The notes below the pieces were generated by a model. That model searched no databases. It was given only the letters and a program-made list of their open reading frames with translations, and was not told the DNA's origin. Below are positions 3,001 to 28,164 of a stretch of 64,000 nt of DNA, one piece after another; position 1 is the first letter of the stretch; every line of letters starts with the position of its first letter. Made by a program: the position numbers and the translations under genes. The DNA is from Balanoglossus misakiensis (Eukaryota > Animalia > Hemichordata), in the NCBI GenBank assembly GCA_040954595.2, contig CM082590.2, forward strand, positions 2,232,001-2,296,000, read 5' to 3'.

Positions 3001-4417
3001 TAGCAAGGTCCAGGGGTACCAATTCTCTGCCCTAGCAAGGACCAGGGGTACCAATTCTCTGCCCTAGCAAGGTCCAGGGGTACTTATTCTCTGCCCTAGC
3101 AAGGTCCATGGGTTCTTATTCTCTGCCCTTGCATGGTCCAGGGGTACCAATTCTCTGCCCTTGCATGGTCCAGGGGTACCAATTCTCTCCCCTAGCAAGG
3201 TCCAGGGGCACTTATTCTCTGCCCTAGCAAGGGCCAGGGGTACCAATTCTCTGCGCTAGCAAGGGCCAGGGGTACCAATTCTCTGCCCTAGCAAGGGCCA
3301 GGGGTACCAATTCTCTGCCCTAGCAAGGTCCAGGGGTACCAATTCTCTGCACTTGCATGGTCCAGGGGTACCAATTCTCTGCCCTTGCATGGTCCAGGGG
3401 TACTTATTCTCTGCCCTTGCATGGTCCAGGGGTACCAATTCTCTGCCCTTGCATGGTCCAGGGGTACCAATTCTCTGCCCTTGCATGGTCCAGGGGTACT
3501 TATTTTCTGCCCTAGCATGGTCCAGGGGTTCTTATTCTCTGCCCTAGCATGGTCCAGGGGTTCTTATTCTCTGCCCTAGCAAGGTCCAGGGGTACTTATT
3601 CTCTGCCCTAGCAAGGTCCAGGGGTACCAATTCTCTGCCCTTGCATGGTCCAGGGGTACTTCTTCTCTGCCCTAGCATGGTCCAGGGGTTCTTATTCTCT
3701 GCCCTAGCATGGTCCAGGGGTTCTTATTCTCTGCCCTAGCAAGGTCCAGGGGTACTTATTCTCTGCCCTAGCAAGGTCCAGGGGTACCAATTCTCTGCCC
3801 TAGCAAGGGCCAGGGGTACTTATTCTCTGCCTTATCAAGGTCCAGGGGTACTTATTCTCAGCCCTAGCAAGGTCCAGGGTTACCAATTCTCTGCCCTAGC
3901 AAGGGCCAGGGTTACCAATTCTCTGCCCTAGCAAGGTCCAGGGGTACCAATTCTCTGCACTTGCATGGTCCAGGGGTACCAATTCTCTGCCCTTGCATGG
4001 TCCAGAGGCATTTATTCTCTGCCCTAGCAAGGTCCAGGGGTACCAATTCTCTGCCCTTGCATGGTCCAGGGGTACTTATTCTCTGCCCTTGCATGGTCCA
4101 GGGGTACCAATTCTCTGCCCTTGCATGGTCCAGGGGTACCAATTCTCAGTCCTTGCATGGTCCAGGGGTACTTATTCGCTGGCCTAGCAAGGGCCAGGGG
4201 TACCAATTCTCTGCCCTTGCATGGTCCAGGGGTACCAATTCTCTGCCCTTGCATGGTCCAGAGGCACTTATTCTCTGCCCTAGCAAGGTCCAGGGGTACC
4301 AATTCTCTGCCCTTGCATGGTCCAGGGGTACCAATTCTCTGCCCTTGCATGGTCCAGAGGCACTTATTCACTGGCCTAGCAAGGTCCAGGGGTACTTATT
4401 CTCTGCCCTAGCAAGGT
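1..4417. repeat. 32-bp minisatellite array (consensus ~TCCAGGGGTACCAATTCTCTGCCCTAGCAAGG), ~138 units, running off the left edge of the window
   Basis: Direct 32-bp periodicity with a few variant positions (ACCAA/ACTTA, TAGCAAG/TTGCATG, GGTC/GGGC). The variant order at 1-75 recurs at 2273, and near-identical ORFs sit at 376 and 2648, giving a 2272-bp (71-unit) higher-order period. All ORFs here are repeat artefacts. Confidence 0.97.
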
Positions 4418-6680: not shown

Positions 6681-7184
6681 GATGGATACCAACATAATAT
6701 CACATATTGCCACCTGTCAAATATGCTGAAAACAGTGTCATATTTGCTACAGAAACAGATCCTACTGTATCCTTCAACAACCCATTAGGGAACATGTATT
6801 CAAAGCATAGTAAGTTTCCACAGGGGAAAAAAATTACATGCAGTAAACGTCACAGTGCATTGTTAACAATGCATAAATTAGATAATTAAAGGGACAAAGT
6901 CTCTCTCTTTTTGCCTTCAAACTCCATTAAATACTTACTTCAAATCCATTATTATGACATATAATGACCACACATTGCTTGAAGAATACCTTGAACTACG
7001 TTTTCGCCGTTTAGGCTAAAGACTGGATTTCTGCCTGGCCGTGCGCGCGATTTCGACCGACCGCCGTGTTGACCTCCCGCGAAGTGAAAAACTACGCATA
7101 TTGCGGTTGCGTCACAATGTCAACACACACATGTGCTTCAGTCAATGACCTGGTCACGTACGTTCATGACCCTGGATCACAACA

Positions 7185-10100
7185 ATGGAATGCGAGGTAA
7201 GTACATATACGAATACTTATAGAATTCTGTAAACTAGAGAAAATTAGTAGAGAATGCTTTTTATGAATGACATTGACATTGACAATGATAAAGAAGGTAA
7301 ACTTTACAATGTCAGATGGAGATGCCTGTGATTTACCGTACATCGCGACGTTCATTTGTTTGTTTTGATTCTTGTTTTCACGTTCCGGGATTTATCTAAA
7401 TTTTCGCTGAGTATTTACGGTTTCTTTAGGCCGCTTTCTTGTTCCACGGTGCACTGATTTCTATTTCAAATATGACGTGATCACCAGTTGTAAACTCCTA
7501 ACGAAAATACACGTAAGCATAAGTACGAGTCGACGCCGGGTTGCACTGGGGTTGCACTATGGTGACATCGACAGCTGGCAGCTAGCTGTAGTTGCCGTAA
7601 TGTACATGAACTAGACCGGATGCCAATCGGCCCCTATCGAGTACTCAGTATCATCTGCTCACGCGCTAATGGACAGGGGGATTATTATTATGAATAGAGC
7701 AAGTGCATGCACTTGCAACCTGTTAACAAAGCTGATGCGACGAGCAAAAAAGAAGTATTTTTGTGATAAATTGCAACTGTCTGTAGCCTCTGGGAAGGAC
7801 CACAAAAATGGCAAGTCATCAATGAAATCCTGAACAAAAATTCAAAGGTTAATGCTCCACAAAAAATAAAAGATGACAAAAACCCTGGGAATTTTGTTAC
7901 TAAAAATATTGATATAGCTGACGCTTTTAATTCTCTTTTTGTCAACATTGGACAAAATCTAGCATCACAAATACATTGTAGCACTAATTTCAATGATTAC
8001 CTTGGTATTCGTCATTTTAATTCTTTCTTTTTCCATCCTGTGCATCCTGGTGATATACTCAGAGAAATTAATTTATTAGACCATTGTAAAGCTGCTGGTT
8101 TTGATGAAATATATCCAAAACTTGTAAAGGAAGCAGCTGATTATATTACAGAACCATTTGCTCATATTGTTAATATTTCCTTGTCACAGGGTATTTTTCC
8201 AGAGAAACTGAAAATGGCAAGAGTAACACCAATTTTTAAAAAGGGCTGTGTTCATGAAATAGGAAACTACAGACCTATCTCTGTCTTGCCAATATTTAGT
8301 AAGCTGTATGAGTCTATTGTAAATAAGCAACTGTGTTCTTTTTTCGAAAAATTTGATATTCTCACTAACAGCCAATATGGATTTCGTAAGAAATATAGTA
8401 CTAAGTTAGCTTTAGCAGATCTCACAACTGAAATATCAAAGCACATTGATAACGGTCTTGTTACCTTTGGTATCTTTATTGATTTTAAAAAGGCATTTGA
8501 TACGATTAACCACACAATTTTGTTAGCTAAGCTATGCCACTATGGGATTAGGGGATCCACACTTAATTGGTTTAAGACTTATATAGAAGACCGACAGCAG
8601 TATGTCAAGGTCAATAATTGCACTTCAAAAGCGAAAAGGATCTCCTGTGGGATTCCACAGGGATCAATTCTAGGTCCACTTCTTTTTTTAGTATATATAA
8701 ATGATATCTGCAGTTCCTCAGACTATTTTCAATTCAGGTTATTTGCTGACGATACCAATTTATTTTGTTCAGATAAGCAGGACAAAATTGATCTTGCCAC
8801 TCTGAATGTTGAGCTAACTAAAGTACAGACCTGGTGTAAGTCAAATAAACTTACTATTAATATTGACAAAACAAACTATGTTATTTTCAAAACAGCCCAG
8901 GCGAAGTTTAAGCCTGAGGGAGATTTATATGTCTCTGATTTACCATTACACAATGTTTATTCTGCTGTTTATCTTGGAGTTACTCTTGACTCATCATTAT
9001 CCTGGAAGTCTCACATCAACATTATTTTTAAGAAGGTTAGCCAAAAAATCGGTATTATTTCATATGTACGCCATTATCTCCCTAAGTCTATAATTTTATT
9101 ATTATACAATTGTCTTATCCTTCCCCATATAATGTATTGTATCGAAATATGGGGAAATGCGTATAAAACCTATTTAGATTGTATTTTCAAATTGCAAAAG
9201 AGACTTGTAAGGCTTATAACATTTTCTAGCCCCAATACACATAGCGCACCACTTTTTCAGCAACTTGGAATTCTTAATGTTTACAAACTCTGTAAATTTC
9301 AAACTTGTGTTTTTGCGTATGATCTAAAGGCAGGGCATTACGCCCACTCACTAGATCGCTATGCTTCATTTGTATCACACAAATATTTTACAAGATTTGC
9401 CTCTACTGATAAGTTTACGCTTCCCAAAGTAAAACTTACTTCATCTCAAAATAATTTATACTATTCTATTGCCAAGCATTGGAATGAAATTCCCACACAA
9501 ATAAAATCAATTCAATCAAGGAATTTATTTAAAAGCTCTCTGAAAATGTATCTGTTGAGCATAGATTAATTTAACCTCTTTTATAAACCTGTTTACTTTG
9601 TCACCGCGTTGTTTGACTACCAACTATTGTTTTGTGATATGAATTGGCAATTATATTAATTGTTTCAATGATTTGTATGTATTTAGGGCCAGGGACACGA
9701 CTAGTTCCACTAGAACTACTTCCCTGGTCCGCACCAGTTATGTAAAATGCATCTTTCTGGTGAAATAAAACTATCTATCTATCTATCTATCTAACTTGCA
9801 CCGGGGAAAAATATGCATAGAATATTTCGAATTAAAAGTTTGCGAGTCATGCTTGGTAACTGTTGCACAGCATGTTGTTGACATTTCTTTTGTATCAAAG
9901 CGTCATGAACACGAACAGAGACAGGAAATGGATAATGATCGTTCAAATAAAGCTATGTATCACTATGGATGAAACGATAGTCGAAACCCGTGTTCTAAGA
10001 AAACAAACAAAGGCTGGCCAAAAATTACGTGTCATAAGTTTAGCGGAACTTTTATAGGTGAATAAGAAAAAAAAAACTGTTAGGTCTACATTTCAATTGG

Positions 10101-12924
10101 CTTTGAACACGAAGTTATGCGATCGCAGGTATTTTATAGTGATTGTTGCATTACACATGATGTACACAAGAGGTTATTAAATTCATTGATTCTGTGATCT
10201 GAAGAAGCAGTGAGTGAAAACCAAGTGATAAAAAATAGAACCAAGCAGTGGGCTTGAATTTGAATGGCATGCATTTACAGGGGATATGCACCATGCCCCA
10301 TCCCTGTCCAGAAGAAACACAAACTTATTGATTTTCTTAGGGGAGAGATGTTACTGTTTGGGTTAGTGAGCAAATTTGATTATTTTGGTAGAGGGCAATC
10401 ATTGTACACGTCTGGATGTTACATGCATATGAATAATGGATTTATGTTCACAAATTTCACCTAATTCATGAAATTGCATGATTTGCAATATTACTGCATG
10501 TACAAAATTATTTATTACAATTTTTCAATTTAAAATCTTATTTTTTTTCCAGACAAGTGAAATAGATAACGCAGAAAGAGAATCCAGCCCAAGTACAAAT
10601 GAAAGAGGTAGAGGACAACGTGGTAGAAGTCGAGGCCGTGGTATGGGTAGAGGTCGAGGTGGTGAGACTGAGAGAGGAGGAAGTGTTGCAGATCGGGGGA
10701 GTACAAGTCGAGGCCGTGGTAGGGGTAGAGGTCGAGGTGGTGAGACTGAGAGAGGAGGAAGTGTTGCAGCTCGGGGGAGTACAAGCCGACGACGTGGAAG
10801 GGGTAGGAGGGGTGCAACATCCGTATCTGTTGGAGATGCTGTTGCCCAACTACAACAAAGGAGACAAAGAATGGAGGTAAACTTTAAAAACATACATTTA
10901 TTTCATACATATATAAATAAAACAAAACAATAAAAATGAAATGAAATTGTTAACAATCTGTCCACAGGCTGCTGTTGAACACATGAAAAACGATGAACTG
11001 CAAAGAATGGTGCTACAAATGGTTGATTGGCAGCCTGGTTTGATGTTTAATCTCATATTCCCAGTAACACTAGAACAGCAGGGATACCACCCACCCTCAG
11101 CAACTCAATCACCTGACTGGTGCATTTGCAGTCACTGTCAGCAGATGCCAACAGAAATGGAGAAAATGTGCTGCGATAAACAGCCACAAAACTGCATCTC
11201 AAGATCACCGGTAAGTCAAGTAAGCTTTTGGATTTTAACTTGTACACGAATATAATTCTACAAGGACTCACTACTAAACCACTATGAACTGAAAATTTGA
11301 ACTCTAAGTTAAATTGAACACATTCAGTTCCACTAACCTGGCTACAGTCAAACTGTACTTCCTGTAACATTTTTGCAAAGTATATCCACAATGGTTTGCA
11401 TATAGCAAAGCAAAGCTGGTTGTTTGTGTGTTTTTGTCAGAAGTTTTAGAGCCACAATATCATAACGTAGGGAGATAATCCAATGCAAACAGTTTGACCT
11501 GAAGGGTTGTGAAAAGAGTGCATGTGTTGAGGACGGAACTTTGGAAGAACAGGTCACAAACTCAAAGTATACAGAAATATGTATTTGTAACACGATACAG
11601 GAATTTATAATTTGTGCATTATGCATATATTGAGACGTCTAGTGTTAGATTCTGCATATACCAATACAGAGGTCAGATAAACATTGAAATTTAAAGAGAC
11701 ACTGGAAACACACCACTATTATTCAAAACCTGAGATTGCTTTCTGAAGTCAAGAAAACAATGATATAAAAATTCCCTTTGGAAGTTGGTGTTGACATCAA
11801 CACAACTAAATATATATATAAAAAAAATTCTGTGAAGTACTGGTGGCCAGTGCAGCTTCATTGTCACATTTGGCATGGCAGTGTAAGGAAATCGTCGAGT
11901 AGTGTGCTATAGAAAACATCTTTGTTGACAAATTTACAAAATCTTCAGAACAAAACATCAATACAAACTGATTATTCTAAAGTTAAAGGGACAAAGTCTC
12001 TCTCTCGCTGCCCTTTTTCCATTAATTATGTTTGATACAAGACACTATTTATGTTAATTTACATGTGGATATGTAGTGAATCAACGCTCAACCACACACA
12101 CCTTCCATCCCACTTGTATCATGCGAAGTAAAAACTTGCCCAGAATGAATAAATGGTAGAGACCGTTTATTTATTTTGGTGAGTTTTTCACTCTTGTGTC
12201 TACAAGCAGGAATGGGAGGTGTGTTTGGTCGAATGTTGATTCACTATATATCCACATGTAGAATAACATGAACAATGTCTTGTATCAAGCAAAATCACTG
12301 GAAAAGGGCAGTGAGAGAGAGAGACTTCGTCCCTTTAAAAATGTTACATTTTGGTAAATGACAACAGCATGCCATCTATGTCACTGTCAGTAATAAAACT
12401 TCAGTGATTACAATATGAGTTGAAAGTCTTGTAAATATTTCATTAAATTTGCTTGTGGTTTACACTTTATGTGAATGAATGTAAATGTGGAAAAAAAACT
12501 ACTGTAATCTTGAAGGAACAAATCCAGTGTTGCGGGCAAATGGGTCAGGAAATCGGTCCTGGATCTTCCAGACACAGCAACTATAGAGAGGTTTGACTGT
12601 AGGCTCTTCCTTTTTTTTTACATATTATGAACCTAACTTTTGTTATCTTTCTGTCACCAGGATTTCAATGTGCTTGTGCTCAATGAGGCTGTGTTGGCCT
12701 TGGCTAGGACCTACAGGCGAGAAATCTTTGCTACTGATGATGATGATGACAATAACACAGATAACCGACATGCTGCCTATAGGCAGTATGTCATGTGGCA
12801 GTATGGTCGTTTAGGTGCAGGAAACCGTGTGGTCATTCCCAGTTGCTGTGTCTGGGAGATCCGGGACCGATTTCCTGACCCATTCGCCCGCTACACTGGA
12901 TTTGTTCCTTCAAGATTACAATAG
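7185..12924 (+). CDS. KolX-type accessory protein (~280 aa): RG/RGG-rich N-terminus plus P2X7 C-terminal ballast-like Cys-rich Zn-binding domain
   Basis: Exons 7185-7196 (MECE|gtaagt, least certain), 10553-10876, 10968-11210 and 12661-12924, all GT-AG phase 0 with the frame open. Motifs WCICSHCQQMPTEMEKMCC, RHAAYRQYVMWQYGRLGAGNRVVIPSCCVWEIRDRFP and YTGF match the P2RX7 C-terminal/KolX family. No P2X channel domain is present. Confidence 0.85.
7718..9793 (+). mobile_element. 5'-truncated non-LTR retrotransposon (CR1/L2 group, Crack/Daphne-like) in KolX intron 1
   Basis: RT ORF, 3' UTR stem-loop CCAGGGA...TCCCTGG (9689-9727), AATAAA at 9764-9769 and a (CTAT)n tail. Candidate 7-bp TSD ACTTGCA at 7711-7717 and 9794-9800. 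No endonuclease domain or ORF1 present. Confidence 0.9.
7723..9569 (+). pseudogene. LINE ORF2 fragment: reverse transcriptase and C-terminal region
   Basis: Motifs NYRPISVLP, FIDFKKAFDTINH, GIPQGSILGPLLFLVYINDI, FADDT and YLGVTLD. The frame is open from ~7809 (WQVINEILN) to 9569. The upstream piece LTKLMRRAKKKYF (7723-) is shifted by one base near 7804-7808. No start codon because of 5' truncation. Confidence 0.88.
10627..10785 (+). repeat. 78-bp (26-codon) in-frame tandem duplication encoding RG-rich repeats in KolX exon 2
   Basis: RGRGxGRGRGGETERGGSVAxRGSTS occurs twice, with DNA copies starting at 10627 and 10705. Confidence 0.9.
11987..12334. mobile_element. Fold-back (fully palindromic) Kolobok MITE, copy 1, in KolX intron 3
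   Basis: TTAA at 11983-11986 and 12335-12338. Termini AGGGACAAAGTCTCTCTC...GAGAGAGACTTCGTCCCT. The two ~170-bp arms are imperfect inverted copies, and both resemble the autonomous element's right end (~25812-25997). Confidence 0.9.
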
Positions 12925-12956
12925 TTTTTTTTGTCTACATGTATTTACATATGGAA

Positions 12957-15900
12957 TCATTCAGGCAATTCTCTGGTTCGTCTCAATATTTTTTCTTTTA
13001 CTAGATCAGTTGTTGGTGGTGGTGGTATTTGAGCCAGATGCATGGATATTCTCCTAGGATCTGTAGTTTCTAGTTCTCTCTTTTTCTTCATTCCTTCTCT
13101 ATCTTGAAGTCTCTTCTGCAGAATATCTTTTATCAGTGGCCTGATGTAGGGATAGGACTTGGCTTCTTTTACTGGAGCGGCGGACCATCTGTTGCTCTTT
13201 TTGTTGAATTTTCTGTGGTACCTTTGATTGAAACGCAGTGATCAAAAACTTAGTTTGTGCAATCATTTTTACTTCACTTACTGTATTGTTTTTATATGCA
13301 ACAATACCACATGCTGTATGCATGCATTTCTTTTTTACCACGATTTTACACCTTTCAATTGTTATTTTGAATTTTGTTTTTAAACTGCTTGTCTTTCACA
13401 GAATGACATTTTGTTTTCTGCAAAAGCTACATTTTAAAAGTGATTACTGTGGTTATATTAAATGTGTTTTGGCATTCATTTACATTTGAAGATTCTGCAA
13501 TAAAGTGTTGTTTGGACTCACATTTCTTGACCATCTTTAGTTTTCCTTGTTTCCCTTTCTAGGTGCGCATTGTGGTCTAAGGCGGCCAAGATATTTCTGG
13601 CCCTGTATGCTGGTGGTGAGTAAGCATACCTCTTGGAAGCGTACATTAGAATGTGTTGTTGGAAAGATTCCAATTCAGCCGTCGATCTGCAGAAGAACAG
13701 ATAATAAAACTTCTGTTCAGTCTATTTGTCTTCAAATTGGGTAAGACTGCTGTCAAAGGCAACCAAGTTCATGGCCACAAAAGCCTGTATATGAGACTTA
13801 CATAAATAAGTATTTGTTGTCATACTACACAATTTGGGTCATGATACCATCTACAGTGACAAAAAAATATTTTACAACCTATAAAACAAGGATTTTGTTT
13901 AGTGACCCTTTTACTTTTAAATGTCAACTACCGGTAACTCATTTCCAAGCTAATATTGACAGGTTTCTCGCAAAAATTAGCATTGATTTTGGCAACAAAA
14001 TGCCACAGGAAATGCCAGAGTATGTATGGCCCTATTTATTGGTGTCTTTTGGCCAAATGACCAATTTTGTTACCTGAAATTCAGAAGATAGTGGATCTTC
14101 TTTAGGAATGCTTTGTCAAACACGACATTTCTCAATGCCAAATGGGCTGCACCGTTTTTCTTTAAGTAGTTCCTTTCAGCGTCCCCAGTATCAGCAAGTG
14201 GTCCATGGTCGCATTCCATGGCATTGCTGTTGCCATAGTTCACATGCCATGTGTGTTCATCTACCACGTGATGTATAACACCACCCCAAATCTCCTGCAC
14301 AACAACATACAGTCTCTATATCACGATTTTTGATTATATCAGTAAAGTTTACAATCCCATAAATCACTATTGCAATAACATGAACTATGACATGTTCAAT
14401 GCACAGCAAAACAGCAGCAACCAATCCAATTGAATGTTAAAACATGTCTCAATATTTATTATCAAATATTAATTTTTAAGATTACCCTAAGAAGTCTCTA
14501 TAGTATCACACATTTTAACATCTAGGCTAGCTGATGATAAGTAATACTTACCAGAAACTTGTCCATATCTGATGCTTTTTGACAACAATACCAAAAGTGG
14601 TTCACAATGTGGGTCACCCATTTCAGCAGTGGTTTGCACTCTTTGTTTTGTGCAGCCTTAAAAAAACACAGAATACACTCATGATTGTGATGTCCGGGGA
14701 GGGGTTATTGACAGTCGACAACGACGGAGTTCCACAGAAGTGATGTTTATTGAATGACAACCACGCGGGAACTAACAGTTACAGGAAATCACGTATACAG
14801 ACCATGTGACAATCACGTGATCATGACAATACTATCACATCTCCTCAACTTTAGAAGAAAACTTGTACTTTAAGTTTACAACTCGCTTTGGAAAGTATGA
14901 AATTTGCCAACACTGTCAAATTGTAATGCTTTGTGAATGATCATGTTCTAACAAACGAAAACAAACAGAACCTTAACCTTAACAAGAACTTGAGAACTTC
15001 ATAACTAGGAAAATACAAATCTCCAAGAGAAAATTTGCTCTACAGAAACTCATTCCATAATGTTTGTGTACAGTCTTATGTCAATATAATCTATCCTTCT
15101 GGCATGCAATAGTCTTTGTGCCAAGGAGGTTTAGATTTTATTCTTGTTGAGCGTCTCACATCAGTACTATTGGGGTTTACATTTGTCTTAGGTGAATTTG
15201 TCACTGGCATTGTTGGAGGAACATTTACAATCGTTTCCAACGATGCTGTACCAGTAGGTGAAACAGGACTAGGACATGCTGGTCCAGTTGATTTCTGACT
15301 AGAACAGACGGGTTATACTGGCAAGTTATCCAGGTTGTTATGTGTAGACAAATCATGGATATGGGGGTTACAGGATGGAACACCATTTTGAACCCTTTGA
15401 GGTTGTTCATATGTCAAATGTTTGGAGTTCCATTCAGTGCCCTGGAAGGAAAATTCTGGATATTCCTCAACATATTTCTTTACATGTCCAGTGGACCTTC
15501 TTTTTACACCTTTGGAGTTTTCCAATACTAACGCACCTCCATCTTTCTGGATGACTTTGTATGGTTCTGTCTCGAAATTGGGAGTGAGTTTGTTTTGCCT
15601 AAATGCTTGCTGGAGCAAAACAGTATCACCTTCCCTGATATCTGAGGAAGTGGCATGTCTCCTGTTGTCGGCATAGAACTTTTGTTTCATTTTCATTCTG
15701 TTGTTTCTTTCTCTCATTTTGATTTGCCAATCAGACTCATTGATTGTTTGGGATGGAATTCTCAGTCTAGGAATTTCGTCCCTAAACTCTCTTCCCATCA
15801 GAGCCATAGCAGGAGATATGCCTGTCACAGTATGGGGTGTATTTCTATATTCAAATAGAAAATGTGTCAAATCTTTGTACCAACTTTTCTTTTGCAATTT

Positions 15901-18900
15901 AGCAATTCGTACAGACTTCAAAATTATTTCATTCAGCCTCTCAACACTTCCATTGCTCTGAGGCCAGTATGGAATGGAATATTCATGATCAATACCTAAG
16001 TAATCAAGGAAACCTTCAAACTCGGCTGAGGTAAAAGGTGGACCATTGTCTGATTTGACACAGTAAGGCAACCCATGTGTAAGAAACATAGCTTCCATGG
16101 CTTTTATGACATGGGCAGCATCTGTTTTCTTTAACAAAACTACTTCAGGCCATCTAGAGTATAAATCAGTTACCACTAGTAATTTCTCACCATCACATAC
16201 ATCCAAAAGATCAACTGCTAAATCGAACCATGGTCCTTCAGGTAACTGTGTGGGTAATAATGGCTCTGGGTTTGGCCTGGCACTGACCAATTGACATGGA
16301 TGACAGGATCGTATCAGTTTTTCCACATCCCTGTCCATTCCTGGCCACCAAACTCTGTCACGTAAACGAGCCTTTGTCCTCACAATTCCCTGATGACCCT
16401 GGTGTGCAATTTTCAAGATTTTTCTTTGCAAAACTTGAGGAACAACCAATCTGTTACCACGCATGATCAATCTGCCATACAACCATAATTCGTCTTTCAC
16501 ATGCCAATAGGGTGAAGACTTCAATTTTGACCAATTTGCAGAGGTAATACACTTTTCAACCAATTGCAAGCTCTGGTCTTTTGCAGATTCTCTCTCAATA
16601 TCACGTGGGGTGATAGCAGATGGCATAGCCTCTAAAACAACACTACATGCAAAATCTTCAGTCTCTCTACAATAGTTGTCAGATGGTTCGTCCACGGGCA
16701 ATCTACTCAACATGTCCGCATAATTATTCTTTCCCTTGATATGGGTGATATGATAATCAAATTGTTGCATATATAACAGCCATCTCTCAATTCTAGCTGA
16801 AGGGGGCCTGGAGTTAGGGCTGAATACTTTCAATAAAGGCTTATGGTCAGTTCTGACCTCAAAATGACTGCCTAGCAGAAACTGCTGAAGTTTCTCACAT
16901 GCCCATTTAACTCCAAGCGCCTCTCGCTCAAACTGAGAGTACCTTGACTCAACATGTGTAAGCTTTCTGCTAACATAGTACACTGGTTGATATGAACCAT
17001 TACTTTGCATTTGTTCAAGGATTGCTCCAACACCAACGGGCGATGCATCAGAAGTGACTCGAGTTTTAGCACCCTGCTTGAAATAAGCCATGAATGGACT
17101 TGTGGTCAATTTATGTTTGATGAGATTGAATACTTTCTCATGCTTGGGAAGCCATTTCCACTTTGCATCTTTGCGAGTCAAATCCCACAGTGGGCTTGTC
17201 ACTGTTGCAAATTTATCGACATATTTTGAGCAAAATTGAGCCAGCCCCAAGAAACTTCTCAATTCTGATTTGTCAGTTGGCGTTCGAGCTTTTACAATAG
17301 CTTTGACCTTCTCATCAGTGAGTTTCATACCCTTGGCCGTCATCAAGTGACCCATGAATATCATACTGTCTCCTAGCTTACATTTTGTAAAGTTCAGCGT
17401 TAAACCATGCTCACTAAAACGCTTGATCACTTTCCCAACTCTGGCATGCAGCTGCTCATAATTTTCAGCTACTACTCTAATATCATCATGCATGTTGTGG
17501 GCACCCTCACAGCCCTTCAAAACCTGGCTAATTAGATTTTGAAACTTTTCAGTCGCCATGTTCACACCAAAAACTAAACGCTTGTAGCGATACAAAGAGT
17601 TGGGCCCTGAAAAGGTTGTAATATCCCTGCTCTTTTCATCGAGCTCAATTTGATGGAAAGCCATATTCATATCAAGCTTGCAAAATACCTTGGCCCCTGA
17701 AATTTCCTCTAGCGTTTCATCCATGGTGGGAACAGGGTGTCTTTCCCTAACAATGGCTTGATTTGCTTTTCTCATGTCCAGACATAGTCTGATATCCCCA
17801 TCAGGCTTTTGTACTGTTACAAGGGGGTTGACCCAAGAGGTCGGACCCGAAACCTTCTCTATTACTCCCAGCTTTTGAAGCTCGTTGAGTTTTTTCAACA
17901 ACTTTAGCACGGCGGTTGAAAGGAATTCGCCGGTACTGGGCTATGGGTTTGACACTCTCATCAATATGCAAATGGAGCTTGTAGCCCTTTAACTTACCCA
18001 ACCCATTAAATACCTCAGGATATTTCCTCCGCAATTCTGCAAGAATTGGCGAAGAATTATCAGCAGATATTGAATTTATCGTGTACAGATTCACATTTCC
18101 AACTCTCAACATATCTAAATTCTCAGAAGTACTCCGACTCAACAAAATCGGTTGATCAGCCTTGATCACTATAAAATCAGCAATACATTTCTTTTTAGTA
18201 GGCGCTTCAACATGTAAGGCACATTTACCCAATATATCTAAAGGTTTACTAGAACCATAGGTAAACACTTTATTGTTACAATTTCGAACTTTCACACCAC
18301 GCTTTTCAGCAAGTCTGCGAAATTGTCTTTCACCAATGAGATTACATGTAGCACCACTGTCGATGATAACCGGCACGTGTTGATTCTCGATCTGAATACC
18401 TGTATCAGTGAGGTCCTTCCCACTGGAAGCACGGAAAGCAGCATTGAAAGCATAGTACGCTTTCTCCTCGTCAGTCTCGACGTCTGCATGGCCACCATCG
18501 GCGTTTGCATCAGTAGTCGTCTGAGCTACCTTGTGTGTACCGCGACCATCACCACGCGTACGGCCACGTCCACGTGCGCTGCGGTTACCACCACTGCCTC
18601 GACTGTTGCCATTTTCACTGTCTTTAGACGGACAGTCTTCCCACTTAGCACGACAGTCTGCAGCTCTGTGTCCCGGTTTTTGACATCGGAAACACCGGTC
18701 GGATTTTTGTTCGGCATTGCGAGAACTACCACTTGTACTGGCGCGACATTCACGTTGCATGTGACCTTTCCTTCCACAACGGAAACAGGCTAAGTCCGCC
18801 ATTTTGTTTTTGGCGCGCGTACGTTTACCGCCAATATTGACTGCATTTGCACTCACAGCTTGAGTACCAGACACCAAAACTAGTGCATCTTTGTCGTGAT

Positions 18901-21900
18901 ACGACCGTATGATTTGTAGTAGTTTGGTAGTGTCCAAATTCTTTTCACGATACAGCTTGCTTTTTAGCACCTTGTTGCTGATGTAGAGCAAGACACGATC
19001 TCTTATCTGGTTGTCTTTTTCCGTCTCGGGAAAATCACAGTCTTTCAGTAGGTTCTTGAGACGTATTACGTAGCTGTCGACCGTCTCCCCGGACGTGGGA
19101 GTTGCGCTGTAAAACTTCTGTCTCGCCATAGGAACGTTTTTCTGCAGTTGAAAGTGTTTATCCAAACATGCTATCAACGTTGCGCAGTTTGTGACGTCAC
19201 CAGTTTCATCTTCAGATTTAGTGCTAACAATGTCTCTGATGCCCGCTCCAGCCATGTGCAAAAGTAAGGCACGCTTCTGCGCATTATTTGAAACACCAGA
19301 AGCTGCTACGAACAGTTCAAATTCCTGAAGCCAACGCTCCCACCTTTGCTGAAGAGCCTCCGGTTCGCCTTCACAGTCGAATCCCGCCACTCCTGGCAGT
19401 CCGGACAGCGTTACGGGTGTAGACATTTTCATGCACTCAAATCACGGCTAAAAAGTCACCAAATCTCGTAAAGGTTGCTTGCGTATGTTCTTCGATAGTT
19501 AATTTAGACAACTAAATCCTCGTCGCCATTTATGTGATGTCCGGGGAGGGGTTATTGACAGTCGACAACGACGGAGTTCCACAGAAGTGATGTTTATTGA
19601 ATGACAACCACGCGGGAACTAACAGTTACAGGAAATCACGTATACAGACCATGTGACAATCACGTGATCATGACAATACTATCACAATGATCTGATATAA
19701 ACTGATGGTTCATAACTATTCACCATAGACCTGAACTTGTTTGTGACATTTACTGATGCAAATAACAACTGCACAATTTGAATATTGCCATAACTATTTT
19801 CAAAGGTAGTTTGACACCCACCCCACCCAAAATGATAGAAGGATCAGTTAGTAACATTCTATACCCTTACATTTTTATGTGTCAGTGTCACACATATTTA
19901 GAAGATAAATGAAAACTGAATACAAGAATAAAAGTTTGTCTAACCTTTATGATCTTCTTTGACAAGTTCTTGGCAGCATGCCAAATGTCATGAGAATGTT
20001 TTATGTCTGGGTGATCGTCTCCTATAAGAGTGGGTAAATGTGATTACAAATGGAGTTTCAAAATGACAGTGTTATGATTGCCAAATACATTATCTCAGAA
20101 AAACAAAATCAACATTGACCTGTATAACAGCTTTGCTTTTGGCATTTCAAAGCAACATATAACCCAAGTTAAGATGGGTCCCTAGGATCTTTTTGCTCGT
20201 TGCTATGGGCCTTTATAGGACACTACACTCAATTTTGATCGAAACCGTTATGAACGTCCGACAAGGGGCTTGTAACTAGTTAAAAATACGCACGATTGTG
20301 TGCACACCCCCTGTCCGAGTATGGTTACGGCAGCTACCGCCCGGCCATAGGCCGCCACGCTAATACGGCAAAGCAGCAGTCACCGATAGCGTGCGCGTCC
20401 TGTAACCACAGTAACTGGATCGAACGCTAAAAATCCAATGTTTTGTACACAGAGATTTTGTACCGTTCACGAAAATCCCTAAGGCTTTTTTCATAGGCGA
20501 CGTAGGCCAGCCAAATTTGACCTGCTTGTTGAGAACGCACTTCCGCATAGTGTGACGGATCGTTTTTTCGGTTTTCGTCGTGCTAAGAAGCGATACCGGT
20601 GGAAGAGTGCGTCCAAAAACACCCACAATCGATGACTTTTTCAGGTGTGGTACGGGTATGCTGAAATCGTAGGATACAACGATAATATTCGAAAACAAAA
20701 TCCGTCACGATCTTCCCTGGTTCAAGCAACTAATGAATACGTATCAAGTTCGTTTTTGAGGTCACGGAATAAAAAGCCTTAGGCTTTTGAAATTTGACCT
20801 AGCTAATTTGCATATCAATGGCGTCAGGGGGCGCGCGCTCACAATCGTGCAGATTTTCAACTAGTTACCAGCCCCTTGTTAGACTCTGAAAACGGCTTAG
20901 TCCAAATCGGGGTGTAATGTCCTATAAAGGCCCATAGCAACGGGCAAAAAGATCCTAGGGACCCATCTTAAAATCATAAAATTACACTTACTCATCAGAG
21001 CTGTAATCTGCATGTGGGCATCTGTTACGACTTCTTTGACATTTACACCTTTCTCCTGAAGCTGGTTTAGACTTTTAACAAGGCAGGCCTTTTCCATGTT
21101 TGTTGACTTCTTCTCTGTTTCTCTTTTGTCCATGGTTATTATCGACAGAATTTTCTTGGTGGTTTCCTCCATCACAGTATAGGTGCAATATTGCGCACAA
21201 AAACCCGGGGAATCCATTCGCCCATCACCTGAGACATAATCAAGTAAATATGTCAGTCAAATTATACATAAGTATGCATAAGTGAGAACATTTCCAATTC
21301 AATGATTTTACAATGAGTATGAAATGATGCAAATGAGGAAGTAAATGCCACCAAATAATAACTATTGTATTCTCTTTTCTAAATCAGCAGAATAGAGTGT
21401 GTAAGTATAAACTTTTAGACATAAATTACAAGTGCATTGGCAGACATGTGATGGATAATCAGTGGGGTGAGCCAATCAGATTAGGTGCGTGTCATTAACA
21501 ATGAAGCTAAAAACTTACCCAGTAAAACAAGTTCTTGGCCATCAAATGAATCAATGATGTCTTGTTGTTGTCGTATCCAAAATTCATCAAGACATGGTAT
21601 TAGATAAGCTTTCTGAATTCTATTGTAAGTATTCTGGGAGCAAATTCTGAGTGACAGAATGCTTGCCAAAAAATTAATTTTGGCATAATTATTACCAGAC
21701 AATAGAATGGCAGCTGCTGTGAAGAGATCACCACTATGAAGTCTCCTGTTCAAAATTGGTTGTGAACACCATTCGTACTCAAGGTGACCAGCTGAGCATT
21801 CCTGAAAAAAAAAAGTTTAGAGATTCATGCTTATTTGATCATTTCATGTTGATTTCTCCAAGACACGATAAAACAGATGTTAATACCGATAACTTTGTAA

Positions 21901-22289
21901 TTTCAGTTGACTATTGTTTTTTATTATAAACCTAAAGGAACAATGTGCACCCACATAGGATTATAACTAGAGTTTCCTGTTCATCTAAATAATACTGGCA
22001 TAGTGATTGTCCATACAATGCACACTACAGTTGGTATAGTTTAACAATAATTGTCAAGAATATACCATATTTAGTTCACACTCACCCACTTTAGATATAA
22101 AGCTGAGCCAACAAACTTTGAAGTAGAGGATATCAATCCACTGCAAGACTTCAATGCACAGACTTGCCTAATAGATTTTTTGCCAAGGGCCAGAAGCTGG
22201 TTAAAAAAAAACAGACATGTTGTAGAGTCACCAAGGAGGCTTTCCCCATCTTCTTCTGTGACAACTCTCTGCAGACCCGGTGATGGTGT

Positions 22290-22332
<43 letters not shown>

Positions 22333-25300
22333 CCACCGTCACTTTCAATATCGTCGTCACCAATGGCAGGAACCACCTGCACGCCATTAGTTCTGAGAAA
22401 TGGACAAAAAATCCTAACAATGCTCATGACTTGTCCATCAGAGTTTGTCAGTCAGCTGTTAGTACAAATGTTGTAAGTTGATGTTTCATTCATAAAAGAA
22501 AATTTATCATATATATGAATTTTAGCGTCCAACACTTAGGCTTTTTTTAACCATGAGGATATTTTGCCTTCCATTTGTTGTGTACCCATCCAATAAGGAA
22601 CTTTGATGATAGTGATAAATGCGCACTTACATTATAGAAATATCAAAGCTCGGCTCATAGTCATAATCATCATCGTCACATAGGTTCATGTCTTCCTCTT
22701 TGTCTTCCTCAGAAATATCAATGCTCAACCTGGTAGTAATAAAACCAAGGAATTAATCTGAATAGTGGGACAATGCTGCTCACTAAAAATACATATAGTC
22801 ACTCATAAGCACAAAAAAGAAAGAAAACATTTCCCATGAATTTAAGTACAAGCAAATGTTCTGACACACGTGATGCATGTCATGAAACTGATTTTCCCAA
22901 CAAATTTAAATTTAGTGTAACAGGAGAAAAGAAGCAATCGAAAAGGCTTGCTCAAGCAAGGGATACATGCATGCCGTATATGACAATAGAATAAGGAAAA
23001 CTTACTCAAATGGATTGATGAAAGACTCAGACAAATTTCTTGGAAATCTTACACGGCCGCTGGAGAAAAAAATGACAAAATAGGCACACATGAGACGGCA
23101 ATATGTACTGAACTAATTTACAGCTGTGAACTAAATATAACACACATGAAAATTGAACTCTGAAACAAAGTGACAGGGGCACACAGGGACAGCAGCATCA
23201 CTGCTTATTTTTACAGGTTCCTCTCTATCTTGGTTTCACACAAGTAAATTTAGGGTGCTTGGTAAACATTTGCCATTTTGCTTACTAAGAAATATTTTCA
23301 TGTTGATAGCTACACAGAATAACTTATTCACACAAGCATAAGCAAGGGAGTTAGAAATTAGTACATTTACATGTATGTAAAGCAGTCGCTCCTGCTTTTG
23401 TCCTAAAGCAGGAGATTAATGTTTATCACAAAAGGTACAAAAGAGGGGGGAAAGCCACATTTCACTATAAAAGTTTACCTAACTACAGTTTATCTTCAGA
23501 TTATTAGAATCTCACACTCCCAAGGACCTGGGATCACATTTCTCACAAGAGTTGGGGATTTTCTGTCCCACACGAGCCGCAGGCTCGTGTGGGACAGAAT
23601 ATCCCCGACGAGTGTGAGAAATATGATCCCAGGTCCTTGGTGTGTGAGATTCTTTTTCTCACACGGTCACAAATTAGCCAAGTTCGTTAAAAACATTGAA
23701 TAAATGACTCTGGAATTGTTGTCTGGGGGCACGTTGTAGTCTCTGTGCCTGTAATACACATCGCGCCATTGGATAACATTTAGTGCGCGTAGCGACAGAA
23801 CACTTTGTCAACCAATCAGCACTCACGTCATATACAGCTTTCTATTCAGTGAGATTGTGAGAACAATTTGTTCCCACACTCTGTTCTCACACTCCCAGCG
23901 TACGGGGAGTGTAAGAAAAGATAGTGTCATACCTTTCACTTTGTACTGGCTGTGATGGGCCTTCTGTAGATTCCATAGGTTTCTCTTGTGATGATTCTCC
24001 TATCTCCTGAACATCTATCTCTGCAATTCCAGAGATGGAAGAAACCCTGTACAAAGAAAAAAAAGACTAAAATTTGATACATGACAAACTAGGTCTGCAC
24101 AAACGTTGTAGGTTCCAGTTCCCCCTAATCCCCCAACCAGTAAGCAGTGAAAAACCTATGTTTGCTGGATTAAAACCATAGACGTGAATGTCTTGGTCAA
24201 CACACTGAATAAATTGTATAGGATGATTTTGGTTGTTTATTGGAGGGCAAATGTCAGGTATACTTCGCCATTGTTATGTTGATTATTGTCACCTGAGAGT
24301 TTGAGCAGAGGCTTTTCCTCATACTACAGATTGTGGCTAGAAGCATTGAAATTATCATGTAATGTAAAAAAACAGTGCTTAAACACCTACCTGACTGATG
24401 ATATTTCTGATGCAACTAATTCTTCTAAATTTTTTTCGATATCACAAAGATGGCCATTTCCTGGCGTTGATGTCATAGGAAAAGTTTGGGTGGCTTGTCC
24501 TTGATCATCACGTTGCCTATAAATTTTAAGAAACAAATATATACTTTTAGGTATTCCCATCTATCACACAGATAACTATGTGGAATGCAACATTTCATTG
24601 TTTCATTTCTATAAATTATATTACGGACACAATTACTTTTCATGAGCCATAAAAACATGTCACCTCTTTAAAACAATATACATCATGTATACTGCAAGAG
24701 CCCCATCAAATATGAAAATCTATTGTGTACTATACAAAGCTCAAAGTATCATGATCAAAATTTATTTGGTACCTAGTTTCCATAGACGGTGCAAATACTT
24801 GCAGTGTTTCTTGGCCACTTGGAGATGATGCAGGCCTGGTAAATTCTGCATCTGTTGTTGCTGTAACTTGATGTTCATAATACCTGTCCACACAAATAAT
24901 AAGACACAATGAACCTTTTTTGCCTTTACAATGGCTTGTTTATGTAGCCAATTTCTGTCTTTAGAATGGATTACACACAGCCATAATTTGCCTCAGAGGA
25001 CATGTTACAGACACGTAAGGTGAGAATAAGATAACTACGAGAAAATAGCCAAATTTTTCTTCAGTTCATATACAGCTCAAGAAATGTACACAACTGGCTA
25101 TAACAAAACGGAAGTTGTAGCAGAACAAAGAACAACCAAATTCCGCTATAAGCATATTGTCTCGTATGTTCGATAACAGTAATACATGTAGATTGTCCGG
25201 AGGAAAAAAAAGAAAAAAAAAAAAATTGCAGTACCGTACAATTTATCTCGCATAGTCATACATTGATACAAACGGTCCAGCGTACTACATACAACTGCTG

Positions 25301-25705
25301 GTCGAGGGCGAGGTATGCGCTGGGCAAAATCACTAAGTGAAATACGACTTGAAACAGCACATTTAGAATTACATTGAGATGATGCTCGCAGTGATTCTGT
25401 GAGACACAGATTCTAAATTCATGTACACAATTCATGCCGTATCTTTGGCTATGGAGTACGTACACAGTGAATGCACGAATATGTACTTACCGGTCGATCA
25501 GTACCTTTGCGACCTGGCGGTTCGTTTCCAATACCAAGGAGCGTTTGATTTCATTCCAACGATGAATTTCCGAGAAAATGTTTATCTGACCTACTTGTTT
25601 CAGCAATTGTTTACGTTTTTTTGCCGAAGCAGTGGTTTGTGGGCGGCCACGAGCACGTTTACGTTTACCACTGCTACTGGGAACAGACGCCAAAGCATCC
25701 GCCAT
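12957..25705 (-). CDS. Kolobok DDE transposase (~792 aa, 14 exons)
   Basis: Exons 25705-25491, 24883-24773, 24516-24391, 24046-23933, 23059-23006, 22729-22631, 22392-22086, 21801-21519, 21228-20992, 20021-19945, 14656-14552, 14294-14074, 13686-13522 and 13221-12957. All are GT-AG and phase-compatible, total 2379 nt, with no internal stop. Motifs GDGRMDSPG (D1), VVTDAH (D2), HDIWH, NHFWYC, HH..H..CDH, STAELESF (E), LAALDHN and DPRRI..PPP. Exons 2-6 (low complexity) are less certain than the catalytic exons. Confidence 0.88.
14686..14839 (-). repeat. Gypsy 3' LTR
   Basis: TGTGAT...ATCACA, identical by eye to 19533-19686. AATAAA on the - strand at 14746-14751. Purine tract AGTTGAGGAGA immediately upstream (14840-14850). 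Confidence 0.95.
15091..17910 (-). pseudogene. Gypsy pol (RT, RNase H, integrase) with a premature stop
   Basis: RT motifs LDMRKAN, LDMNMAFHQI and MHDDI. RNase H motifs DASPVG, EREAL and TDHKPL. Integrase HHCC plus the SDNGPPF...VER core. After the TAA at 15315-15313 the same frame continues to RRSTRIKSKPPWHKDY and a TAG at 15093-15091. Confidence 0.88.
17801..19432 (-). CDS. Gypsy gag-protease (two CCHC knuckles, aspartic protease)
   Basis: CFRCGRKGHMQREC, CFRCQKPGHRAADC and IDSGA. Reads into the RT N-terminus (PIAQYRRIPF), then leaves the pol frame at an A6 run near 17890-17895. Confidence 0.9.
   Translation of the reverse strand: MKMSTPVTLSGLPGVAGFDCEGEPEALQQRWERWLQEFELFVAASGVSNNAQKRALLLHMAGAGIRDIVSTKSEDETGDVTNCATLIACLDKHFQLQKNVPMARQKFYSATPTSGETVDSYVIRLKNLLKDCDFPETEKDNQIRDRVLLYISNKVLKSKLYREKNLDTTKLLQIIRSYHDKDALVLVSGTQAVSANAVNIGGKRTRAKNKMADLACFRCGRKGHMQRECRASTSGSSRNAEQKSDRCFRCQKPGHRAADCRAKWEDCPSKDSENGNSRGSGGNRSARGRGRTRGDGRGTHKVAQTTTDANADGGHADVETDEEKAYYAFNAAFRASSGKDLTDTGIQIENQHVPVIIDSGATCNLIGERQFRRLAEKRGVKVRNCNNKVFTYGSSKPLDILGKCALHVEAPTKKKCIADFIVIKADQPILLSRSTSENLDMLRVGNVNLYTINSISADNSSPILAELRRKYPEVFNGLGKLKGYKLHLHIDESVKPIAQYRRIPFNRRAKVVEKTQRASKAGSNREGFGSDLLGQPPCNSTKA
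19516..19528 (-). promoter_or_regulatory. Primer-binding site of the Gypsy element
   Basis: TGGCGACGAGGAT, 4 nt downstream of the 5' LTR, a PBS type common in Mag-like elements. Confidence 0.8.
19533..19686 (-). repeat. Gypsy 5' LTR
   Basis: 154 bp, identical to 14686-14839. Confidence 0.95.
20173..20967. mobile_element. Non-autonomous TTAA-specific element (probably a second Kolobok family), 795 bp, in transposase intron 9
   Basis: TTAA at 20169-20172 and 20968-20971. Termini GATGGGTCCCTAGGATCTTTTTGC... and its reverse complement (GA...TC, RR...YY). The TIR is near-perfect for ~55 bp and imperfect to ~140 bp. No recognisable coding sequence. Confidence 0.85.
22291..22331 (-). repeat. (GAT)n coding microsatellite giving a poly-Asp tract in transposase exon 7
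   Basis: (TCA)n on the + strand, in frame as GGDDDDDDDDDDDDDE. Confidence 0.9.
23506..23920. mobile_element. Hairpin-ended non-autonomous element in transposase intron 4 (Crypton-like or Helentron-like, unassigned)
   Basis: ~148-bp palindrome at 23506-23653 centred on CGAGCCGCAGGCTCG, and a small hairpin TTCTCACACTCCC...GGGAGTGTAAGAA at 23884-23917 sharing the TCTCACAC motif. No clear TSD. Confidence 0.55.
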
Positions 25706-26325
25706 GACTGTCGCTACAGCTATAATTATATGTATGACGTTTCATTTTGTGTATATACCCTTGCACATGCGCACATTGGTAATGATCGAAGCCCGGCCCG
25801 CGTCCGCGCTCGAATAAATGGTAAAGAACGATTATTCATTTTGGTGATTTTTTTACTCTCGTGTCTACAAGCGGGATGGAACTTGTGTGTGGTCGAACGT
25901 TGATTCACTATATATCAACATTTAAAATAACATACACAGTGTCTTGAATGAATCAAAATTAATGGAAAAAAGGCAAAAAGAGAGAGACTTTGTCCCTTTA
26001 AGTCAAAGGCTGATATTTCTCACTGTGTGTGACCAGGGTATCATTTTAAACACAGACTGGACTTTGACTACTGTGTCCAATGGAAAAAATACATCAGCAT
26101 CTATGTCTGCAAAAAGGTGTCAAAACTGACATATCTTATCATGTATGTCATCAAACTCAAAGGATAATATCTTCATTTCATGTGACCTGCCTGGTTAAAG
26201 TTTACCGCCAACATTTCACCATGCTTTACCCACCCACCCATGGCACAGTGTGTCAAATCCAATATTTGGTTCGATGAATGAACCATGAAAGTTTCCGAAT
26301 TGGTACTACCCGAAAACTGCATGGC

Positions 26326-26960: not shown

Positions 26961-27761
26961 CATGAAATAGGCAACATGAATTTCACATAACACAGTTTGT
27001 CAGCTCTGAGAATATTGTTCTCAGGACCATGTCCCACGCTTAATAAAAGTGTTGTGTATGTGGTACAGTTTAGATTCCTTGTCAGATTTCCCATAACACA
27101 GTTCGTGAGCCCCGAAAAGTACCATAACACAATTCTCATGAACATTTCCCATGATCAATAAAAGTGTTGTGCGTAGCATAGTCATTTTTCCGTTTGCTGT
27201 GACATTTGTCTCCGTGTGAGAGTTTAAGTAAATGTGGAAACACGCAAATTAGGCAACATCAATATCCCGTACAGAATTCAGTGTGTTTTGTTCGCATTTT
27301 TGGTTGCCATTTTGAAAATGAACAAAGGACTTTCCATTGACCAACACCCGTATGAATACGTCCAAATTACCCAACTTTAATATTCCTTAAATAATTGGTC
27401 AGCTGTGCAAATATTTTTCACCTGACCACTTCCTTTGCTAAGCAAGAGTGTTTTTTATGTAATAATATTAATATAATATTTATAACGTATGTAGCACATT
27501 AAATCTCAATGTGCTTTAAAGTTGTCCCATGGTCATTTGATTTAGGTCGTTGGACATAAATATTCCATTCAACTCCCTGGGGAGCAAACAACATCTCACC
27601 ATCTTTAGAAATGTCAAATTACAGTGCTTTTGGCCACGTATTAACCTGGGGATTTACAGTTAACTTTAAATACACATGCATATGCATTTAATCCCCATGT
27701 GACTATAAAACAGTTTGTAAATGTGAATATGTCCACATTACACAACTTGAATTTTACTTAA

Positions 27762-28092
27762 AGGGACAAAGTGTCTCTCTCGCTGCCCTTTTTACCATTA
27801 ATTATGTTTGATACAAGACATCGTTTATGTTGGCTGTATAGTGAATCAATGTTCGACCAAACACAACTTCCACCCCACTTGTACACACAAGAATGAAAAA
27901 ACTCGCCAAAATGAATAATCGGTGTTTACCATTTATTCATTTTTGCGAGATTTTTACTCTCAGATTCTACAAACGGGATGAAAGTTGTTGGTTGAATGTT
28001 GATTCACTATATAGCCACATGTAGAATAACATAAATGGGTTCATGTATCAAACTTAATTGAACAATGGTGGCGAAAGAGAGACTTTGCCCCT
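27762..28092. mobile_element. Fold-back Kolobok MITE, copy 2
   Basis: TTAA at 27758-27761 and 28093-28096, with the same palindromic body as 11987-12334. Paralogous empty sites (CCTTAAATAATTGGTCAGC near 27386, CCTTAAAGAATTGGTCAGC near 29388) carry a single TTAA. Confidence 0.88.
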
Positions 28093-28164
28093 TTAAACAA
28101 TTGGTCAGCTCTGCGAATATAGTTCACCTGACCACTTCCTTTGCTAAGTAAGAGTGTTGTTTAT

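Follow-up and report, generated by a model that had tools for sequence, protein, structure and literature searches.

The 64,000-nucleotide stretch of the hemichordate Balanoglossus misakiensis analyzed here (GenBank assembly GCA_040954595.2, contig CM082590.2, positions 2,232,001 to 2,296,000 of the forward strand; "the window") contains an intact-looking, 19.1 kb transposable element of the Kol0 lineage of Kolobok elements. The element itself is an ordinary Kol0 copy, and its unusual part is the first exon of the transposase gene. Residues 19-72 of the transposase comprise an R-G-R-P hook, a basic stretch and a domain of about 35 residues, for which structure modeling supports a ribbon-helix-helix (RHH)-like fold. 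Sequence comparisons further support the repeated capture of this domain by hosts, with host-type genes in three animal groups. We consider it likely that the module is the DNA-binding and pairing unit of the transposase, acting as an RHH-type homodimer at the element ends. While Kol0 elements, their accessory gene KolX and their domestication are already known, the domain would be a new, hitherto undescribed candidate for an animal DNA-binding domain.

The minus-strand transposase gene was modeled from splice signals and homology; its 13 predicted GT-AG exons join into 2325 nt, that is 774 codons plus a stop, with no internal stops. Exon 1 (25705-25491) begins with the ATG at 25705, specifies residues 1-72 and ends with the residues D-R at a phase 2 donor at 25491, next to which stands GTAAG; a CAG acceptor precedes the start of exon 2 at 24883, which contributes R-Y-Y. 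This reproduces the frame of an earlier note, made from the sequence alone, that had read KRKRARGRP in exon 1 and continued into exon 2. Two contig runs from one sample overlap parts of the gene without joints and are uninformative on splicing. The domain is followed by an acidic linker (residues 75-270; 196 residues, 29% D/E) and then by the Kolobok core, whose catalytic residues, assigned by motif and alignment, are D420, D488 and E638, with a D-x-x-H motif (D509-I-W-H512) that falls after the second D and before the E. These core residues, the TTAA flanks and the KolX partner bear out the identification as a Kolobok transposase.

THAP is the usual N-terminal domain of Kolobok transposases (PMC6004289). 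None is present here, as the earlier note had observed: the C2CH spacing was found neither anywhere in the 774-residue model nor in any stop-free minus-strand segment of 22000-26000, and a search of the model for the THAP zinc ligands, P/W/F residues and AVPTIF box was likewise negative. The first 130 residues contain no cysteine at all. A hidden THAP-coding first exon was considered and ruled out, as only 292 nt separate the element end from the ATG and most of this space (the first ~190 nt) matches the non-coding ends of related miniature inverted-repeat transposable elements (MITEs). A Pfam scan and inspection of the transposase model revealed no other recognizable DNA-binding domain.

Sequence family and predicted fold of the exon 1 domain

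Exon 1 matched no family when 14 of the element's frames were scanned against Pfam. However, a phmmer search of 1.84 billion representative proteins (E<=0.001) with the exon 1 domain returned 12 matches, the best at E 1.1e-8; among the best 10 of these 12, four are named, and the named closest relatives come from Ptychodera and Glandiceps. Profile searches gave seven matches among 7986 candidates and 21 among 7995, and nine proteins kept out of the profile scored 43.8-61.8 bits versus at most 5.4 for the controls (459 shuffled or reversed sequences, of which 209 returned a score). Judged by these comparisons, the domain is real rather than a chance pattern and represents an unnamed family without a Pfam entry. 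Five of the 12 phmmer matches stop exactly at D-R, the end of exon 1 in the window, which suggests an exon boundary common to the relatives. The ESM Atlas returned 30 unnamed eukaryotic clusters for exon 1, comprising short proteins of no family, three of them with scores of 0.92-0.94; a named-only Atlas search with the domain of the Ptychodera protein P0001 (see below) gave no usable match, and a word-index search with exon 1 alone yielded 64 candidates, none at E<=10. Searches of PDB sequences matched only a segment of a viral coiled coil (best E 0.029 and 0.75), in short stretches that were taken as chance.

Conservation is concentrated in G-R-P, the basic stretch, the strand (R/K)-I-N-I, an invariant R49-W50 pair, A66, L69 and D71. 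The strand alternates polar and hydrophobic positions, and S/T opens the second helix (helix B) in 20 of 27 aligned rows. G-R-P is invariant in all 13 (invertebrate) rows of our alignment A1, and the hook is absent from all teleost and shark/ray rows. The earlier note had called this hook an AT-hook. An R-G-R-P core with basic flanks is indeed present (R19-P22, preceded by KRKRA), but the hook is less canonical than claimed: the Pfam AT_hook model (PF02178) matches weakly in three of the 13 rows (best E 0.034), and the window copy is unmatched at E<=1.

AF2 models were built for the 72 residues including the hook (pLDDT, a per-residue confidence score, 77) and for a trimmed segment of 44 residues with a 27-row alignment (pLDDT 80), the latter having helices at model positions 16-28 and 34-43. 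In a Foldseek search of 350,542 chains (E<=10), the trimmed model returned four rows in total, namely three chains of AtTCP10-DNA structures (7vp4, 7vp5 and 7vp7; PMC9841405), with TM 0.54-0.60 and root-mean-square deviation (rmsd) 2.0-2.3, and the antitoxin VapB11. A VIA-align search of 48,161 chains placed nothing but TCP and RHH proteins in its first 13 rows, and at least 30 of all 50 rows belong to these families, with TCP at ranks 1, 2 and 6; examples are 5zkt (Z 3.9, rmsd 4.2, 40 aligned residues), nMazE9 (Z 3.8, rmsd 2.1, 35 aligned) and NikR (Z 3.7, rmsd 2.2, 35 aligned). Some of these family labels follow the entry titles, and others are what we take the chains to be.

A two-copy prediction scored 0.68 versus 0.02 for the best control, with pLDDT no lower than 87 and runs that agreed in 97% or more of their contacts. 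The predicted cross-chain contacts (I41-I41', N42-Q40', I41-I43', L69-L69' and W50-A66'/I70') form a pattern that we read as an intertwined RHH dimer, with an antiparallel ribbon and helix B packed on helix B'. Among microbial proteins, 21 of 30 solved pairs passed the mark used for such dimers and none of 23 single chains did; among eukaryotic ones, 17 of 29 solved pairs (7/16 for animals) passed and none of 30 single chains. A pass speaks for likeness to RHH, not for binding. The small ordered domain with an RHH-like fold that the earlier note had proposed is thus supported by the models, with TCP and RHH ranking first in the fold searches.

RHH domains have been described from prokaryotes, with the plant TCP domain as a eukaryotic look-alike. 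The strand-helix-helix unit and the intertwined homodimer of bacterial and archaeal RHH proteins (Arc, CopG, NikR, ParG, the N-terminal domains of MazE/VapB/ParD antitoxins and PutA52) are both predicted here; the alternating strand and the S/T before helix B are likewise shared, and most RHH rows of VIA-align superpose at 2.1-2.9 Å over 34-35 residues. In contrast to these proteins, the window domain comes from an animal, has an intron at its boundary, forms part of a DDE transposase, follows a hook and basic stretch and has a shorter strand, and it shows 0-24% identity to them with no profile match. The plant TCP domain (OsPCF6, 5ZKT; AtTCP10/15, 7VP1-7; PMC9841405), the top structural match in both fold searches, resembles it in being a eukaryotic dimer of RHH-like form, in which the ribbon is short and a basic extension at the N-terminus makes further DNA contacts. 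However, identity in the structural alignments is 8-14%, there is no Pfam TCP match, helix A of the window domain carries its own invariant R-W, and the TCP signatures, the R-V/I-R saddle and the D-R-H loop (PMC9841405), are absent, the strand being Q/R/K-I-N-I in most rows. Hence, we rejected a classification as TCP. A transposon ancestry common to the domain and plant TCP domains, a proposal for which fold rank is the argument, is quite improbable.

Occurrence in transposases and host-type genes

The domain heads other proteins with a Kolobok core: P0003/P0020 of Ptychodera, identical to the window protein at 85 of 159 positions in the first core segment, and six teleost models. The oyster model P0021, which ends early, is probably a further domain-headed Kolobok protein (18/53 identical in alignment; no BLAST match to the core). 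In all six teleost proteins the first catalytic D is lost, and five of them carry 3-9 C2H2 fingers: the fusions of Sebastes, Anarhichas and Lycodopsis keep the whole dead core, and those of Anoplopoma and Cebidichthys (P0033, P0035) share an identical truncation of it. The Ptychodera protein P0001 combines the domain with an acidic linker and seven C2H2 fingers and has no Kolobok core; its domain is the nearest to that of the window (62% over 42 columns). P0018, P0022 and P0024 from Mobula, Pristis and Pristiophorus hold two to three copies of the domain in an otherwise unrelated protein, without any other recognized domain; this shark/ray protein is a candidate for an old domesticated gene and could form an intramolecular RHH pair. 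The idea that the domain had been taken up by host-type genes is thus supported by the acorn-worm C2H2 protein, the teleost fusions and the multi-copy shark/ray protein, all as database gene models. Short domain-only proteins are annotated in Glandiceps and Ptychodera. In Fundulus P0034, a THAP-like tail (recognized by eye) is followed by the domain and then by an HTH_Tnp_4/DDE_Tnp_4 transposase, so that either a second transposase superfamily carries the domain or the model is chimeric.

A tree of the domain (32 rows, 42 columns; unrooted and mostly unresolved; eight isoforms or near-duplicates, P0013, P0014, P0015, P0017, P0020, P0025, P0026 and P0030, left out) contains a teleost clade with support 100/100 and a hemichordate group with 86/85. 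The spacing from the hook to R-W is 29 residues in all hemichordate rows versus 33-34 elsewhere. Host-type proteins cluster with transposases from the same lineage, in keeping with independent captures by hosts. In the fish fusions, the retention of a dead transposase core indicates the direction from transposase to host well, and these proteins display the route from a transposase to a domain-plus-C2H2 factor. The Kolobok origin that the earlier note had proposed for a host transcription factor domain is therefore supported for fish, with the human genes that it had in mind outside that support.

Host genes derived from Kolobok elements have precedents in the P2X7 ballast and Nanor, both from KolX (PMC9587614), and in the XKol-Tpases of Xenopus (PMC6004289). 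These derive from KolX or from THAP-bearing transposases, unlike the RHH-like domain described here. The available portions of PMC9587614 and PMC6004289 do not mention such a domain, and the word "N-terminal" does not occur in that of PMC9587614. Among the matches listed by our literature search, none paired RHH with Kolobok, ZNF692 or ZNF653; subscription journals and Repbase reports lie mostly outside the scope of that search.

Proposed role and its alternatives

THAP, a domain of both Kolobok and P-element transposases, reads DNA with a β element in the major groove and a basic arm in the minor groove. The window module occupies the same N-terminal place, and differs in its lack of zinc ligands, its fold and its predicted obligate dimerization; by analogy, it would be a zinc-free functional stand-in for THAP, and we infer that one DNA-binding module was swapped for the other. 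In the proposed mechanism, two transposase chains would pair through the domain, and their Q40-I43 strands would make an antiparallel ribbon reading the major groove at a site in the terminal or subterminal DNA. The neighboring A/T-rich minor groove and backbone would be held by the hook and the basic stretch, and the acidic linker of ~200 residues would tether the module to the DDE core, which would cut the element ends and insert at TTAA. If so, Kolobok transposases would have a second, zinc-free solution for end recognition. As the module is a single first exon with a phase 2 end, it could readily be spliced onto downstream host exons—a route that we infer and that would explain its repeated occurrence before C2H2 arrays.

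Several points weigh against this reading or parts of it. The fold searches gave low scores throughout (Foldseek E 6-10; Z no higher than 4.0), under the tool's own trust level, which is expected for a domain of 35 residues; hence, the case is built on how uniformly TCP and RHH rank first, not on significance. The 72-residue model reached a best VIA-align Z of 3.1, with unrelated chains, and had RHH only at ranks 16 and 32, while Foldseek gave it one PDB row at E 8 and 20 rows at E 5-10 from a viral library, none of them meaningful; the want of a clear match appears due to the dominance of the extra N-terminal helix. The strand is assigned in neither monomer model, and the predicted TM scores (pTM) are 0.38 and 0.50. 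Only one of seven eukaryotic pairs without an older solved relative passes the dimer mark, and the pass seen here may reflect solved RHH dimers already known to the model. No RHH or TCP family was matched in Pfam, PHROGs and NCBIfam at E<=10 (the last two gave scattered weak rows only) or among PDB sequences, single-sequence scans being insensitive at such length. At position 40, which is R or K in most relatives, the window copy has Q. Six 8-mers are common to the two subterminal regions, a number reached in 34 of 500 shuffles, and no binding site was found. The THAP-like tail ahead of the domain in P0034 indicates that the two modules are not always exclusive, and the host-type fusions, as gene models, could be chimeric.

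With these points in mind, the domain might be RHH-folded and yet serve only for dimerization and nuclear or nucleolar targeting, the ends being recognized elsewhere, by a C300-H330 Cys/His cluster or the core. The want of a shared subterminal site and the loss of the hook in all teleost and shark/ray rows are in keeping with this, as would be, were it the same domain, the N-terminus of human ZNF692, which is reported to hold a nucleolar signal and to contact NPM1 (PMC10710265, PMC10956046). Nevertheless, the outward strand positions stay polar and mostly basic or amide (R/K at 40 and N at 42 in most rows), G-R-P does not vary in the invertebrate rows, and the model offers no other recognizable DNA-binding domain, making this decidedly unlikely. 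A role mainly as autorepressor of the element's promoter in the 5' subterminal region has a precedent in the RHH protein Arc of IS605 elements (bioRxiv 10.64898/2026.09.24.754181), and could draw on the ~190 nt of that region kept in related MITEs and on the domain-only proteins of Glandiceps and Ptychodera. However, the domain forms one chain with the transposase instead of standing alone, the domain-only models could be truncated, and the MITE conservation is equally consistent with end recognition, so that we give this role very little weight. It is also highly improbable that an old host transcription factor domain, exemplified by the C2H2 protein of Ptychodera and conceivably by ZNF692/ZNF653, was captured by Kolobok lineages: the closest domain to that of the window is in the host-type P0001 and the tree is unrooted and built on few columns, but the domain accompanies the Kolobok core in hemichordates and teleosts, and probably in a mollusc, both spacing and tree place host-type proteins with transposases from the same lineage, and dead transposases are retained across the teleost series. 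A role as DNA-binding and pairing unit of the transposase is thus the one we favor.

A separate question is posed by human ZNF692 and ZNF653 (Zip67), whose N-termini the earlier note had likened to the domain. These N-termini appear to fit the pattern given there, which does not count as independent evidence. Neither protein was among the 12, 0, 7 and 21 matches of the phmmer, word-index and two profile searches or in the ESM Atlas results, but such searches lack the depth, or are too crowded, to exclude them: they require shared five-residue words, scored only ~8000 candidates each or relied on a single 72-residue query, and the profile search with seven matches missed P0001 although its alignment includes that protein. 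The fold lists contain no human domain, including these two, which excludes nothing. A published table classes ZNF653 as "C2H2 ZF; AT hook" and ZNF692 as "C2H2 ZF" (PMC11601247, Table S10). In ZNF692, the N-terminus, with its nucleolar signal, is conserved, the Glu-rich middle is poorly so, and five fingers stand at the C-terminus (PMC10710265); the N-terminus also contributes to NPM1 binding (PMC10956046). The published layout of the two proteins—a conserved N-terminus, an acidic disordered middle and five C2H2 fingers, with an AT hook in ZNF653—recurs in P0001 and the truncated teleost fusions. Together with the apparent fit to the pattern, this matching architecture makes homology probable, and given homology, a Kolobok origin of the human N-termini would be somewhat more probable still. 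The resemblance could instead be spurious or a convergent short amphipathic pattern, the domain being confined to Kolobok and recent fusions. This alternative is compatible with the proposed role in the transposase and in line with the failure of every sequence search to return either protein and with the lack of a named Atlas cluster; given the shallowness of those searches and the shared architecture, we hold it to be unlikely, with appreciable weight nonetheless. The encompassing view, in which an unrecognized animal RHH family is carried by THAP-less Kolobok elements and was passed repeatedly to hosts, in acorn worms, in sharks and rays, in teleosts and, as the N-termini of ZNF692 and ZNF653, at the base of the vertebrates, remains tentative, at a little short of an even chance.

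A metazoan family of this kind would add a DNA-binding fold to animals. A plant transcription factor classification counts RHH among the classes absent from mammals (bioRxiv 10.1101/2022.11.22.517060). The human table has no RHH class and enters ZNF692 and ZNF653 under C2H2; the terms "RHH," "ribbon" and "TCP" are not found in it (PMC11601247, file 3), and passages on transposon-derived human DNA-binding domains in a further paper do not name such a domain (PMC13538051). If the full view holds, humans carry a transposon-derived RHH dimerization or DNA-binding domain absent from transcription factor catalogs. ZNF692 and ZNF653 would then be predicted to dimerize via their N-termini and might possess a second DNA- or RNA-reading surface, and published N-terminal deletions of ZNF692 would need reinterpretation.

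The element and its surroundings

The element resembles Kol0 elements of the Kolobok-1_XT type (PMC9587614, PMC6004289) in its TTAA target duplication, terminal inverted repeats (TIRs) with 5'-RR...YY-3' ends, DDE core with D-x-x-H and a KolX with the P2X7 ballast fold, and differs from them in having the hook and predicted RHH-like domain instead of THAP. The 28-bp TIR of the earlier note is perfect, with 32 of 32 nt identical when the flanking TTAA is included (6886-6917 versus 25970-26001). Intact open frames and identical TIRs suggest that the copy is young. Features are collected in Table 1.

Table 1. Positions of the element's parts and of insertions within it (window coordinates)
Feature	Positions	Strand	Remarks
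5' TIR and TTAA	25970-25997; TTAA 25998-26001	-	28 bp, starts AG
R19-G20-R21-P22 AT-hook-like core	25640-25651	-	in exon 1
Predicted RHH-like core	25491-25588	-	strand Q40-I43, helix A ~44-56, helix B ~62-71; from AF2, fold searches and homodimer model
Transposase exons 2-7	24883-24773, 24516-24391, 24046-23933, 22729-22631, 22392-22086, 21801-21519	-	predicted from splice signals and homology
Transposase exons 8-13	21228-20992, 20021-19945, 14656-14552, 14294-14074, 13686-13522, 13221-12957	-	predicted from splice signals and homology
Ty3/Gypsy-type long terminal repeat (LTR) retrotransposon	14686-19686	-	in transposase intron 9; LTRs 154/154 nt identical; flanks duplicate ATGAT
Nested MITE, TTAA-flanked	11983-12338		ends resemble 5' end of element
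KolX accessory gene	10472-12924	+	coding stretches near 10472-10930, 10917-11252 and 12637-12921; convergent with transposase
Long interspersed nuclear element (LINE)-type reverse transcriptase frame	7770-9566	+	inside element, upstream of KolX coding stretches; assigned by eye
3' TIR and TTAA	TTAA 6886-6889; TIR 6890-6917	+	identical to 5' TIR

KolX is a hallmark of the Kol0 lineage (PMC9587614), and its frames match the Pfam family P2RX7_C (PF20478, the P2X7 ballast) at E 7.2e-9 and 9.2e-21. The first of its coding stretches holds a repeated, RGRG-rich low-complexity segment that is RGG- or AT-hook-like. A 92-bp inverted duplication of its 3' coding end (12491-12582 and 12841-12932, 95% identical) sits between the convergent stops of KolX and the transposase.

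The nested insertions (the LTR retrotransposon, the LINE-type frame and several MITEs) all lie in non-coding parts of the element. The Ty3/Gypsy-type element, whose family was called by eye from its gag and pol frames, is oriented like the transposase, with gag and pol in different frames that overlap near 17804-17940; its insertion may upset splicing of the transposase. Further inverted-repeat insertions occur at 20169-20971 (transposase intron 8) and 23506-23653 (intron 4). A second TTAA-flanked MITE lies outside the element at 27758-28096, with ends that likewise resemble the element's 5' end. In each of the two MITEs, both ends are like the element's 5' end and unlike its 3' subterminal region, which suggests that the sequences required for mobilization all lie in the 5' end.

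Elsewhere in the window, tandem repeats of ~190 bp, diverged and with a strong C-over-G skew, make up a long array from 30100 to about 48500, the repeat scan covering its part up to 36000, and positions 1-4400 are tandemly repeated, with 55% GC and long open frames.

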